From Candidatus Omnitrophota bacterium (lineage in GTDB: Bacteria > Omnitrophota > Omnitrophia > Omnitrophales > Aquincolibacteriaceae): a stretch of DNA of 64,000 nt. A program made the position numbers and the translations under genes. The DNA is taken from assembly GCA_043803685.1 (NCBI GenBank), contig JAZDJU010000098.1, positions 39,847 through 103,846 of the forward strand, written 5' to 3'. The notes below the pieces were generated by a model. The model saw nothing but the letters and a program-made list of their open reading frames with translations. It made no database searches and was not told the DNA's origin. Of the stretch, positions 48,353-54,867 are shown piece after piece (within the stretch, counting starts at the first letter, position 1; each line of letters begins with the position of its first letter).

Positions 48353-48718
48353 ATGTCAAAACGGATATTGATTCTTGACGATGACCCGTTGGTGTTACGG
48401 TCGATAGAAATGGCTTTGAAGAGCGACCGCTACGATTGCGTTTGTGCCTCAACCGCTGAAACGGCCATTGAACAGGCTCATGCGCAAAATTTCGACCTTA
48501 TCATCTCAGATATTCGCATGTCCGGAAAAAACGGCATGGAAGCCATGAGCGAAATTCGGTCAATGTTCAAAAAGGATGGTAGAAAAGACATCCCCATCAT
48601 TTTCATTACGGGCTATTCTCACGACGCTGTTTTAATGAACGCCGAAGGTGTTGGAGAGATCATTTTGAAGCCTTTCGATCTGACTCGTTTTTTAATGACA
48701 GTAAGGGAATATTTATGA
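48353..48718 (+). CDS. Single-domain response regulator
   Basis: ILDDD, ISDIRM, FITG, LKPF; stop overlaps the fabF start. Confidence 0.88.
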   Translation: MSKRILILDDDPLVLRSIEMALKSDRYDCVCASTAETAIEQAHAQNFDLIISDIRMSGKNGMEAMSEIRSMFKKDGRKDIPIIFITGYSHDAVLMNAEGVGEIILKPFDLTRFLMTVREYL

Positions 48719-49965
48719 AGCAACAAACCCAAGATCAGCGCGTTGTCGTAACCGGAATGGGGATTTTGGCTCCCAATGGCAAGACCCTTCCAGAATTTTG
48801 GGGTGCCTGCATTCAAGGTCGTTCGGGAATTGATCTTATTCAAGCTTTTGACACAAATGATTTTGAAGTAAAAATCGCAGGTGAAGTCAAAGATTTTGAT
48901 CCCGAAGCTTATGTCCTTCCAGCAATTCACCGAAAGATAGATCGGTTCGCTCAATTTGGCGTTTGTGCTGCGAAAATGGCCATTGATGACGCCCAACTGA
49001 AAATAGAAAAGGACAATGAATTTAGGGTAGGTGTAATCATAGGCTCGGGGCTTGGCGGGATGATCTTTCACGAGGAGCAAGTTATCCGTGTGATCAAGGA
49101 AGGCGGGCCTTCAAGAGTTATGGCGAGTTCCGTGCCCCGGATCTCTCCGAATTCTGTGTCCGCATACGTCGCCATTGCTTTTCAAGTAAAAGGGCCCAAC
49201 TATGTTGTTTCAACGGCATGCTCATCAGGGGCGAACGCTATCGGGCAAGCGATGGCGTTGTTACGAAAAGGTGCTGTGGATGTGTGTATTACCGGCGGTG
49301 TTGAGGCACCGATTACCCCGGTAACCGTCGCAGCTTATCAGGCTCTGCATGCTCTCTCAAAGAGGAACGAGCCTCCTCAAAAAGCATCCTGTCCTTTTAG
49401 CAAAGACCGTGATGGCTTTGTGATAGGGGAAGGAGCTGGGATATTAATCTTGGAAACAGTGGAACATGCCCAAAAACGGAAGGCTAAAATTTACGCGGAG
49501 ATCTGTGGTTATGGTACGAATTGTGGGGCTTACAATATGGTCGCGCCGCAACCTGATGGTTTGGATGCAGCCCAGGCAATGAAAAGCGCATTGGAAGATG
49601 CCGGTTTGAAAACGGACAACATCGATTACATCAATGCTCACGGCACGAGTACGTTATACAACGATGCAGCCGAAACAAAAGCGATTAAAGAGGTTTTTGG
49701 CGATCGAGCTAGGAAAATTCCGGTCAGTTCCACGAAGTCAATGACGGGACACACCATCGGCGCAGCTGGGGCCATCGAAGCAATTGTAAGTGTTTTAACG
49801 CTTCAGGATCAGGAAATCCATCCTACAATCAATCTTGATACTCCAGATCCCGAATGCAATCTGGACTATGTTCCCAATAAATCACGAAAAGCAAAAGTAA
49901 ATGCTGTAATGTCTAATTCGTTCGGTTTCGGGTCGAACAATGCGGTTTTGATTTTTAAAAAATAG
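48715..49965 (+). CDS. fabF: Beta-ketoacyl-ACP synthase II (FabF family)
   Basis: RVVVTGMG, STACSSG (Cys), NAHGTST and TGHTIGAAG (His-His), SNSFGFG. Confidence 0.93.
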   Translation: MKQQTQDQRVVVTGMGILAPNGKTLPEFWGACIQGRSGIDLIQAFDTNDFEVKIAGEVKDFDPEAYVLPAIHRKIDRFAQFGVCAAKMAIDDAQLKIEKDNEFRVGVIIGSGLGGMIFHEEQVIRVIKEGGPSRVMASSVPRISPNSVSAYVAIAFQVKGPNYVVSTACSSGANAIGQAMALLRKGAVDVCITGGVEAPITPVTVAAYQALHALSKRNEPPQKASCPFSKDRDGFVIGEGAGILILETVEHAQKRKAKIYAEICGYGTNCGAYNMVAPQPDGLDAAQAMKSALEDAGLKTDNIDYINAHGTSTLYNDAAETKAIKEVFGDRARKIPVSSTKSMTGHTIGAAGAIEAIVSVLTLQDQEIHPTINLDTPDPECNLDYVPNKSRKAKVNAVMSNSFGFGSNNAVLIFKK

Positions 49966-49967
49966 GA

Positions 49968-50231
49968 GTGAAAATGACAGCGCCTGATGCTGATCAAATA
50001 TTTCCAAAAATCAGAAAAGCTCTGGCAAAATTATTGAAAATTCCCGAGAGTAGGGTGAGTCTAGAAGCGAATCTGAAGAATGATCTAGGCGTTGATTCTG
50101 TTGATAATCTGGATCTTCTTTTTGCGATCGAGGATGGTTTTAAGCTGAAAATCTCGGAAGAAAAGGCCGCCCATCTGCGCACGGTCAATGATGTTGTTGA
50201 GCTGATCAAAAAAGAGCTGTCCGATGGCTGA
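49968..50231 (+). CDS. Acyl carrier protein
   Basis: DLGVDSVD phosphopantetheine motif, 87 aa, follows fabF. Confidence 0.9.
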   Translation: MKMTAPDADQIFPKIRKALAKLLKIPESRVSLEANLKNDLGVDSVDNLDLLFAIEDGFKLKISEEKAAHLRTVNDVVELIKKELSDG

Positions 50232-53640: not shown

Positions 53641-53656
53641 GGAGTTATGCTGATCT

Positions 53657-54034
53657 ATGAATGAACAATATAAAGTTCTTATGATCGAAGATGAAAAGGA
53701 CATCATCTATTCTCTGGCCCAGGTTTTTGAGAACTTTAAACACATCAAGTTTATCGGCGTTGAAAGTGCTTTGCAGGGGATCGAGCTCGCAAAGGCAGAG
53801 CGTCCCGGGGTCGTTCTTCTTGATCTTTACATGCCTCGCATGAGTGGCGAAGAAGCCTTGGCAGAACTCAAGAAATTGCTTCCAAGGCCGAAGTTCATTG
53901 TCATGACCGGGTGGGAAGACGGGGAAACAAAGCAGCGAATAGAAACGATGGGAGTGGATGCTTATTTTTCAAAGCCCATGGACCTTGAAAAGCTTGTCAC
54001 GAAAATCATAAGTCTTTTAATGATCAAAAGTTGA
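53657..54034 (+). CDS. Single-domain response regulator
   Basis: MIEDE, LLDLYMP, VMTG, SKP. Confidence 0.88.
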   Translation: MNEQYKVLMIEDEKDIIYSLAQVFENFKHIKFIGVESALQGIELAKAERPGVVLLDLYMPRMSGEEALAELKKLLPRPKFIVMTGWEDGETKQRIETMGVDAYFSKPMDLEKLVTKIISLLMIKS

Positions 54035-54042
54035 GGTGAAAA

Positions 54043-54867
54043 GTGGTGGATATACCTAAAGTGAGAGGGACAGTATTGATCGTAGACGATGAGCCCAATA
54101 TGCTTTGGTTCATTGCCCAGACGTGTCAACCGCGAGGTTTTAATACATTAACCGCCGGGAGCGGTATGGAGGCATTGAAGATTGTCCAGGAGTGTGGCGA
54201 GAAATTGGATCTGATCTTGCTTGACCTTAAAATGCCGGGGATGGGAGGCATTGAAGTTCTCAAATCAATTCGCAAGTTTCACCCCGAGCTTTCCGTTATT
54301 ATTATTACCGCTGCTCACGATAAGAAGGAAGAATGCGAAAAACTTGGAATAGAAGCGTTTATCAAGAAGCCCTATAGCCTTGAGGAACTCTACAGCAAAA
54401 TCGAAGCTGTTATTGAACGCAAGGGGGAAGAAAAGGGAAGCGTTGAAATTGAGCCGGGCTATGAGCCGTGCGCTAAAATCCTAATAGTGGATGACGAGCT
54501 CGAAGTTTGTGAGCTTTTAGGAACCGCCTTGGCGGAAGACGTTTCGGATGCTCATTTTGAGGTGAAATGGGTTCATTCGGGTGATGACGCTCTTCGAGTA
54601 TCACGCGAGTTTGAGCCTGACATCGGAATTATCGATATCAAAATGCCGCACATGTGGGGGGATGAGCTGATTGAACGGTTTAAAGCTGGTGAGGGGCGTG
54701 CGCCCAAGGACTTTGTGATTTATACGAGCGTTGGGGATCCTGCGGAAGTGGAGCGCGCCAAGAAACTGGCCCATAAATTTCTTTCTAAACCAACACAAAT
54801 CGAAACTCTTGTCGAAGTTCTCAAGAAGATCTGCGTTCGGCACAAGCTGTTGCGGAAGAAGATCTAA
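54043..54867 (+). CDS. Tandem two-receiver-domain protein
   Basis: Two REC domains: IVDDE..LLDLKMP..KKP and IVDDE..IIDIKMP..SKP; no output domain. Confidence 0.88.
   Translation: MVDIPKVRGTVLIVDDEPNMLWFIAQTCQPRGFNTLTAGSGMEALKIVQECGEKLDLILLDLKMPGMGGIEVLKSIRKFHPELSVIIITAAHDKKEECEKLGIEAFIKKPYSLEELYSKIEAVIERKGEEKGSVEIEPGYEPCAKILIVDDELEVCELLGTALAEDVSDAHFEVKWVHSGDDALRVSREFEPDIGIIDIKMPHMWGDELIERFKAGEGRAPKDFVIYTSVGDPAEVERAKKLAHKFLSKPTQIETLVEVLKKICVRHKLLRKKI

Follow-up and report, generated by a model that had tools for sequence, protein, structure and literature searches.

We analysed a stretch of 64,000 nucleotides (the window; positions 39,847 to 103,846 of contig JAZDJU010000098.1) from the genome of a Candidatus Omnitrophota bacterium (GCA_043803685.1), and found that seven genes at 48353-54867, hereafter the cassette, probably form a quorum-sensing-like pair of synthase and receptor. 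The cassette would make a small fatty-acyl-derived signal, and the adjacent seven-helix kinase would sense it (probability about 0.7). Three lines of evidence carry this reading: conserved linkage of the enzyme and the kinase, the exchange of enzymes before kinases of the same kind, and a sensor domain that follows the neighbouring chemistry. The cassette and its convergent neighbour comprise the following features.

48353-48718, plus strand: stand-alone receiver, 121 aa, Asp53 (PF00072, 1e-20, and motifs); start of the block shared with locus L002
48715-49965, plus strand: dedicated FabF (ketoacyl synthase (KAS) II), C169/H309/H346 (TIGR03150, above cut-off)
49968-50231, plus strand: dedicated acyl carrier protein (ACP), Ser in a GVDS motif (PF00550, 7.7e-12, above cut-off)
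50224-51474, plus strand: predicted NAD-dependent thioester-processing enzyme, 416 aa, with the fold of TAD and of acyl-ACP reductase (AAR) (AlphaFold model, structure and profile matches)
51478-53640, plus strand: sensor kinase with seven transmembrane helices (7TM), two more helices, GAF, HisKA (H491) and HATPase
53657-54034, plus strand: stand-alone receiver, 125 aa, Asp56 (PF00072 and motifs)
54043-54867, plus strand: tandem double receiver, 274 aa (two PF00072 stretches)
54864-55502, minus strand: convergent regulator with XRE-type helix-turn-helix (HTH) and cupin (PF13443 and PF07883)

An earlier sequence-only reading had described a tightly packed, co-directional operon in an AT-rich island, and this description held: the gaps between the seven open reading frames (ORFs) are -4, +2, -8, +3, +16 and +8 bp, and the GC content of the cassette is 44.7% vs 52.1% for the genome, in a low-GC stretch that spans about 46-59 kb of the window. 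Receivers do lie on both sides, as it had said, but the last gene encodes two receivers in tandem and not a single one. The triad of FabF is intact (Cys169/His309/His346; TIGR03150 561.6 vs cut-off 493.75). A housekeeping ACP-FabF pair sits apart on contig C128 (FabF identity to that of the cassette 46%), and thus the FabF and ACP of the cassette are dedicated paralogues. The ACP probably starts at the ATG at 49974 (85 aa, as in relatives), judging from an AGGAG upstream. The kinase carries HisKA_7TM (PF16927; 53.2 bits vs cut-off 28.6), GAF, HisKA with His491 and HATPase.

Close homologues of the enzyme were collected from 27 genome loci and 70 metagenome loci (77 after duplicate removal). 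A 7TM sensor was next or next-but-one to the enzyme in 22/27 genome loci, the other five being titled Verrucomicrobiota or Marinamargulisbacteria, and it lay at most two genes downstream in 63 of the 69 non-redundant close homologues with room. Among 401 genomes of the phylum, 128 had an AAR-like match and 19 the subfamily of the cassette enzyme; these counts are too low, as three missed AAR-like genes surfaced in the receptor-first sample described below. We chose 100 regions around the 147 AAR-like matches of all classes, and 96 of them held a 7TM sensor within 0-5 genes after the enzyme (63 directly), while three of the four without one were near contig or region ends. Chance adjacency was rejected, since six such sensors among the ~2,600 genes of this genome cannot produce 63/69. 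These results indicate that the synteny with 7TM kinases, which the sequence-only reading had named as a test alongside an AAR-like fold, is conserved. Genes intervening between enzyme and sensor encoded tailoring functions: class III aminotransferase with formyl- or acetyl-transferase, GMC oxidoreductase, B12 radical S-adenosylmethionine (SAM) enzyme, LuxD-like transferase-methyltransferase and CrtI-like desaturase.

The acyl-supply genes were more variable. In the 49 close-family loci with at least 2 kb upstream, the enzyme was preceded by FabF and ACP in nine, a PlsC-like acyltransferase in 12, FadL in two, ACP only in one and none of these in 25. FabF and ACP, which the sequence-only reading had taken as core parts, are therefore an optional front end, and the conserved core is the enzyme with the sensor that follows it. 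In one cassette of the same subfamily, a fatty-acid desaturase-like gene sits between FabF and ACP (L005:1438-2448). In the subfamily members without a 7TM sensor (L025-L027, Marinamargulisbacteria; L023-L024, Verrucomicrobiota), the gene after the enzyme encodes a PAS protein or a soluble kinase with GAF, or else the genes there are unknown.

As a control, the search was turned round to start from the receptor. The sensor-GAF profile matched 302 of the 401 genomes at E 1e-40, some matches being partial, and the sample consisted of 33 full 7TM-GAF kinases from genomes without a match in the AAR-like search (12 drawn from ten genomes of the family, and 21 from the 20 regions that scored highest). 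By manual tally, 29 of the 33 stood directly after a small-molecule or lipid enzyme, with four of the 29 enzyme labels based on local profiles only. Eight of the enzymes were unrelated FAR-type thioester reductases and three were the previously missed AAR-like genes; the others included pyridoxal phosphate enzymes of BioF/CqsA fold (below the CqsA cut-off), crotonase with GDSL, ketosynthase III, HMG-CoA-reductase-like enzymes, PlsC with HAD, and methyltransferases. Of 47 7TM kinases that lack GAF in the enzyme loci, one followed a recognised enzyme and four followed unlabelled genes. In the present genome, each of the four 7TM-GAF kinases is preceded by an enzyme, namely that of the cassette, a START-AAR fusion, a receiver-fused HMG-CoA-reductase-like enzyme and a methyltransferase.

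We then compared sensors with their chemical neighbourhood in 106 complete, non-redundant pairs, which remained of 128 when duplicates (110 left) and four pairs with short domains had been removed. Among the pairs with a shared tailoring class, the nearest 7TM domain came with that tailoring-enzyme class in 23/28 cases, vs 6/28 for the kinase core, 6/28 for GAF and 9/28 for the enzyme itself; 2000 label shuffles gave a mean of 1.0 and a maximum of 8. When same-genus pairs were excluded, the counts were 23 for the sensor, 4 for the kinase core, 4 for GAF and 9 for the enzyme. Sensors beside the cassette enzyme's subfamily clustered together (39/40), and subfamily membership changed five times on the sensor tree vs 15 times on GAF or kinase-core trees (FastTree). 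Within the subfamily, enzyme identity correlated with the sensor (rho 0.35), less with GAF (0.20) and not with the kinase core (0.05). For enzymes fused to START, identity tracked the kinase core (0.79) and the sensor was swapped. The proposal of a synthase and its receptor gained further from this co-variation. A natural exchange was found in genome G202 of the same genus, which holds an 89% copy of the cassette plus a swapped cassette (L082). Compared with the window, the swapped cassette has a NAD synthetase (NadE) of 95% identity and FabF of 88%, but ACP of 34%, an enzyme of another class (22%) and a sensor of 29%, and DNA similarity stops at the FabF stop codon. By this sequence comparison, ACP, enzyme and kinase are exchanged as a block within the genus.

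The 416-aa enzyme was modelled with AlphaFold from a 65-sequence alignment (predicted local distance difference test (pLDDT) 93). Its best structural match was TAD, a putative terminal amidation domain of the carmabin nonribosomal peptide synthetase (NRPS) CarI (PDB 9e4s/9e50; Foldseek TM 0.71, Z 35.6, ~19% identity), and cyanobacterial AAR (PDB 6jzq) matched with TM 0.62 and Z 30.6 over 323 residues; the next fold in the ranking was at Z 14. Profile searches gave the same order (TAD E 2e-23, AAR 5e-14, PigE 1e-8). Against the models themselves, the enzyme scored 30.2 bits with TIGR04058 (cyanobacterial AAR), below the cut-off of 449.7, and E 1e-10 with PigE. Thus, the AAR/COG5322 identity suggested from the sequence stood in part: the two-domain AAR fold and the catalytic Cys are there, but the protein is closer to TAD and its cofactor-site residues are of the TAD type. 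The motifs on which that suggestion was based were found at residues 141, 169, 317 and 341. Other landmarks are T169-N-G171, GxGxxG at 203-208, D226, D296-D297 and C343, which aligns with the FACFAE Cys of AAR. C343, D226 and D297 are invariant in 42/42 subfamily members, and the T-x-G motif reads T-N-G in 34, T-S-G in seven and T-T-G in one, while in TAD it is invariant Thr-Thr-Gly. At the site that selects NAD or NADP, where all 42 have D226, the two other AAR-like classes found in the phylum mostly carry G/A/S and then Arg, and they mostly lack both diagnostic Asp. The subfamily is small and clearly set apart in the 50% library. The enzyme is a stand-alone gene, and a search for longer proteins gave one weak polyketide synthase match. 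In the accessible part of the TAD report (10.1101/2024.10.28.620694), TAD has a Cys that never varies, one Asp that selects NAD and another that stacks on the nicotinamide (Gly in AAR), and TAD cluster 4 is likewise stand-alone.

Since the cofactor-site residues are of the TAD rather than the AAR type, the aldehyde release proposed earlier is now one of two possible chemistries, amide formation being the other. By analogy, a fatty aldehyde or alcohol is the somewhat favoured product. Reduction is preferred because unrelated thioester reductases (FAR-type, HMG-CoA-reductase-like, and AAR with PigE-like aminotransferase) occupy the same slot. A primary amide is a less probable but live alternative, because of the TAD residues, WbuX-like amidotransferases near 6/82 close-family loci and the lack of a class III aminotransferase in all 82 (PigE-like ones follow the enzyme in 6/84 loci of the other AAR-like classes). 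Some other product is unlikely. Aldehyde-deformylating oxygenase (ADO; PF11266), which the sequence-only reading had noted as absent from the window, was not found in the whole genome (91% complete) with matching positive controls, and an alkane pathway was rejected for this reason. A LuxI search of the genome also gave no match, yet its positive controls gave none either.

The kinase model (residues 1-467, pLDDT 92) shows seven helices, two more, and then GAF, and its sensor domain (residues 1-232) is wholly membrane-embedded. In an exhaustive structure search with VIA-align, the best match of residues 1-240 was the 7TM domain of ADGRL3 (Z 17.3, root-mean-square deviation 3.9, 221 residues, ~10% identity), and many further G-protein-coupled receptors (GPCRs) scored Z ~14. 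Foldseek, run with the same model, picked up GAF domains but nothing clear for the 7TM part, and the GPCR match comes from VIA-align alone. Helical bundles score generously, and a common fold says nothing on function. The model predicts a GPCR-like seven-helix fold for the sensor domain. In Pfam, HisKA_7TM is placed with the GPCRs. In the parts of PMC5847659 and PMC6944256 that could be accessed, HisKA_7TM is mentioned without a ligand.

We propose that FabF would lengthen an acyl chain carried by the dedicated ACP, with malonyl loading and reduction left to housekeeping enzymes, and that the TAD/AAR-fold enzyme would accept the chain on Cys343 and free it with NAD(H). The product, once exported, would come to the GPCR-like domain through the membrane or from the periplasm and change the state of the kinase, a binding step suggested by the co-variation. 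His491 would hand its phosphate on to the receiver-only proteins, and the likely output would be the convergent XRE-cupin regulator; in relatives, a GAF-HD-GYP enzyme of cyclic di-GMP (c-di-GMP) could serve instead. The whole unit would travel on a probable integrative element and be traded as interchangeable signal types.

Several points weigh against this proposal. FabF and ACP are missing in 40/49 close-family loci, and 25 of the 49 have no recognised acyl-supply gene at all. The six of 69 homologues without a 7TM partner are divergent and mostly from other phyla (Verrucomicrobiota, Margulisbacteria). FadL-type outer-membrane channels near some loci speak for a signal, as FadL takes up long-chain acyl-homoserine lactones according to the available part of PMC9938287, yet they were near only 14/166 loci (8%), and FadL of this genome lies elsewhere, on contig C72. 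The operon has no DNA-binding response regulator. Related genomes are not independent in our counts, and the co-variation of sensor and tailoring class may partly be physical linkage, because the part of the kinase gene that encodes the sensor directly adjoins the tailoring gene. Finally, in the portion of the TAD report consulted, TAD gave no turnover or substrate release in vitro (10.1101/2024.10.28.620694).

The acyltransferases bring up a different reading, in which the product of the enzyme is a lipid that stays in the membrane (an alkyl ether, a wax ester or an amide lipid) and is monitored by the kinase in the bilayer of the same cell, with no signalling between cells. The PlsC-like genes upstream in 12/49 loci would suit such a lipid too, as would the START lipid-binding domains of another AAR class, PEMT/ICMT-type methyltransferases in the same gene slot and a sensor buried in the membrane. 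However, many alternative chemistries are not expected from homeostasis, and patchy occurrence (19/401 genomes for the subfamily), the presence of as many as four cassettes in one genome, the block swaps seen inside a genus, FadL neighbours and tandem enzyme-less 7TM kinases also argue against it; we consider it unlikely.

The kinase could instead respond to something outside the cell, such as a host, prey or stress, and control a cluster for an antibiotic or host-directed effector, as koreenceine and prodigiosin clusters do for their products. This is quite improbable, because the sensor domain tracks product chemistry and the kinase core does not, and neither exporter nor resistance gene was found in the cassette by ORF list and Pfam scan. 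The koreenceine cluster is in its favour, with a core of KAS, ACP and COG5322 reductase in the accessible text of PMC6498172, and so are the PigE-like aminotransferases of the other AAR-like classes. It is also conceivable that the enzyme releases no product and acts as a cytoplasmic co-sensor, which binds NAD(H) or acyl-ACP and contacts the kinase directly. The reported lack of TAD turnover, the translational coupling of the genes (3-bp gap) and the 25 loci without acyl supply fit this idea. But non-homologous enzymes fill the same slot, Cys343 is invariant, and the enzyme correlates with the membrane domain above GAF and kinase core, which makes the co-sensor very improbable. More ambitious than our signal-and-receptor proposal is a phylum-wide, modular code of lipid pheromones, with GPCR-fold kinases, exchangeable synthase-plus-tailoring blocks, eavesdropping enzyme-less 7TM kinases and a TAD-like enzyme making a primary fatty-acid amide; this we hold to be doubtful.

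The cassette was also compared with known systems. Carmabin TAD shares with the enzyme the T-x-G and GxGxxG motifs and three key residues (Cys343 = Cys2238, Asp226 = Asp2102, Asp297 = Asp2170). In contrast to TAD, which terminates an NRPS, the cassette enzyme stands alone with type II ACP/FabF and a sensor kinase, and it has TNG rather than TTG and DD(S/A)RP rather than DDSGP. AAR of the AAR-ADO alkane pathway (TIGR04058) has the same two-domain fold and catalytic Cys, and an acyl-ACP substrate is plausible for the cassette enzyme too; this enzyme differs in that it has Asp where NAD or NADP is selected and additional helices at the N-terminus, and no ADO was found in the genome. Clusters of PigE and KecF (COG5322) follow the same logic of KAS, ACP and COG5322 reductase, whereas the subfamily has class III aminotransferases in 0/82 loci, and those clusters are not described as built round a cognate membrane receptor.

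A synthase encoded next to a membrane kinase is the layout of CqsA/CqsS, LqsA/LqsS, RpfF/RpfC, PhcB/PhcS and LuxM/LuxN. Like these pairs, the cassette would have the synthase of a fatty-acyl-derived signal adjoining a multi-pass histidine kinase, and BioF/CqsA-type, crotonase and methyltransferase folds precede other members of the receptor family; HD-GYP output in relatives resembles RpfG. Unlike them, the synthase fold is unrelated, the sensor is a GPCR-like HisKA_7TM and the outputs are receiver-only. Models of LuxN/CqsS/RpfC-type receptors did not match the window kinase, and LuxN matched one of 100 receptors, in the GAF region only. Homology of the membrane domain to LuxN is thus not shown. 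PrsK (TIGR02916) has the same 7TM-GAF-HisKA-HATPase architecture and its model weakly matched 64 of 100 members, but the window kinase scored 151 bits vs the cut-off of 300. As in quorum-sensing systems, a putative dedicated synthase is genetically linked to a putative receptor with a co-varying sensor. By analogy, the cassette likely works like CqsA/CqsS, RpfF/RpfC and PhcB/PhcS and is a member of none, as its synthase and sensor belong to other families.

No description of the system was found in the open-access literature. What is new here is the split in TAD-type residues, the receptor-first control, the GPCR-like fold, the block swap within one genus and the attachment site. If the proposal is true, it adds a new signal and receptor class to bacterial cell-to-cell signalling, in a phylum that is widespread and has hardly any cultivated members, and it would give a first ligand to the orphan HisKA_7TM domain with its predicted GPCR fold. 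The cassette also offers a three-gene, simple-substrate route to the activity of a TAD-type enzyme. Because sensor sequence predicts the adjacent chemistry, nature would supply dozens of synthase-receptor pairs that could be tried as orthogonal lipid sensors. Were the product a primary fatty-acid amide, an idea we regard as tentative at best, the system would be a bacterial counterpart to lipid-amide/GPCR signalling in animals and provide the first tractable substrate of the TAD reaction.

Other loci show variations of the same plan. A second cassette of this genome (C103:34803-38904, L030) has a START/polyketide-cyclase domain fused to AAR, then a 7TM-GAF kinase, and a divergent thiolase; no other class in the phylum is as common. 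On the same contig (C103:42323-50670, L161), two tandem 7TM kinases without GAF precede the receiver-fused HMG-CoA-reductase-like enzyme, whose gene overlaps that of a 7TM-GAF kinase, and this enzyme is possibly a signal synthase controlled by phosphorylation. The locus at C63:3920-9389 (L160) consists of a receiver, a SAM methyltransferase, a 7TM-GAF kinase, a receiver, a double receiver and a convergent XRE-cupin gene. Its receiver/XRE output module is 71-77% identical to that of the window (71% for the double receiver), and its synthase slot is PhcB-like. At C7:14181-17089 (L162), a third NadE copy, a receiver and a PlsC-like acyltransferase at the contig end are probably another cassette of the same enzyme subfamily, cut by the assembly; contig C7 is compositionally atypical and bin contamination is 6.6%. 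PilZ is fused to AAR/TAD-like enzymes in P0097, L188:3-1820, P0185, P0170, P0160 and P0260, and one protein reads HTH-PilZ-START-AAR, suggesting c-di-GMP control of synthesis; together, the fusions of synthases to PilZ or to a receiver suggest that synthesis is under feedback control. The kinase is followed by GAF-HD-GYP genes in 18/166 loci, and in L064, L078 and L142 a 7TM-GAF sensor without kinase core is joined to HD-GYP directly after enzyme or tailoring genes.

The surroundings of the cassette carry signs of mobility, for which these features are needed.

44060-44098, plus strand: 39-bp copy of the tRNA-Met(CAT) 5' end, 100% identical to C82:8165-8127
44265-44346, plus strand: upstream element of ~80 bp that recurs in the genome and contains the inverted repeat TAAYGCG-N6-CGCRTTA; also present at 46331-46412
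46491-48194, plus strand: extra glutamine-dependent NadE, an occasional companion of the cassette
55677-56093, plus strand: 138-aa ORF at the end of the shared block, no Pfam match

The 39-bp copy is the exact 5' end of tRNA-Met, and the intact gene adjoins a tyrosine integrase on contig C82 (8091-9312). From its sequence, the fragment is likely the attachment site of an integrative element, and the two places are likely the two ends of one element. An integrase also lies upstream of the cassette's closest relative, and these observations together place the cassette probably within an integrative element, whose ends are on different contigs. No Rfam family and no intact tRNA were found in the window.

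The XRE-cupin regulator lies in a DNA block (48353-55843) that the window shares with L002 at 81% identity, as well as in the DNA common to C63, and is near 23/166 enzyme loci; from this position, it is a candidate for the transcriptional output of the cassette. The 80-bp element occurs in five copies in the genome (C98 twice, C7:8807-8886, C63:9705-9780 and C90:1404-1479) and at L215:143-224, and its 7-6-7 inverted repeat stands upstream of island genes. It is a candidate operator, possibly for the XRE-cupin regulator, or a candidate recombination site. It folds no better than shuffles, and a scan for promoters and terminators gave fewer sites than in shuffled sequence. Of the 307 genomes in which NadE was matched, nearly all have one copy of it; here and in G202, the copy next to the cassette is an additional one. 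An idea taken from the accessible part of 10.1101/2024.10.28.620694, that NadE is an obligatory partner for ammonia or NAD recycling, was rejected, as NadE is near just 3/82 close-family loci. Two copies of the 80-bp element flank an exported glucoamylase-like protein of 641 aa (PF10091; 44386-46311). Just past the cassette, at 56244-57378, there are two more XRE-type regulators, one of 81 aa and one of 223 aa with HTH and a probable cupin.

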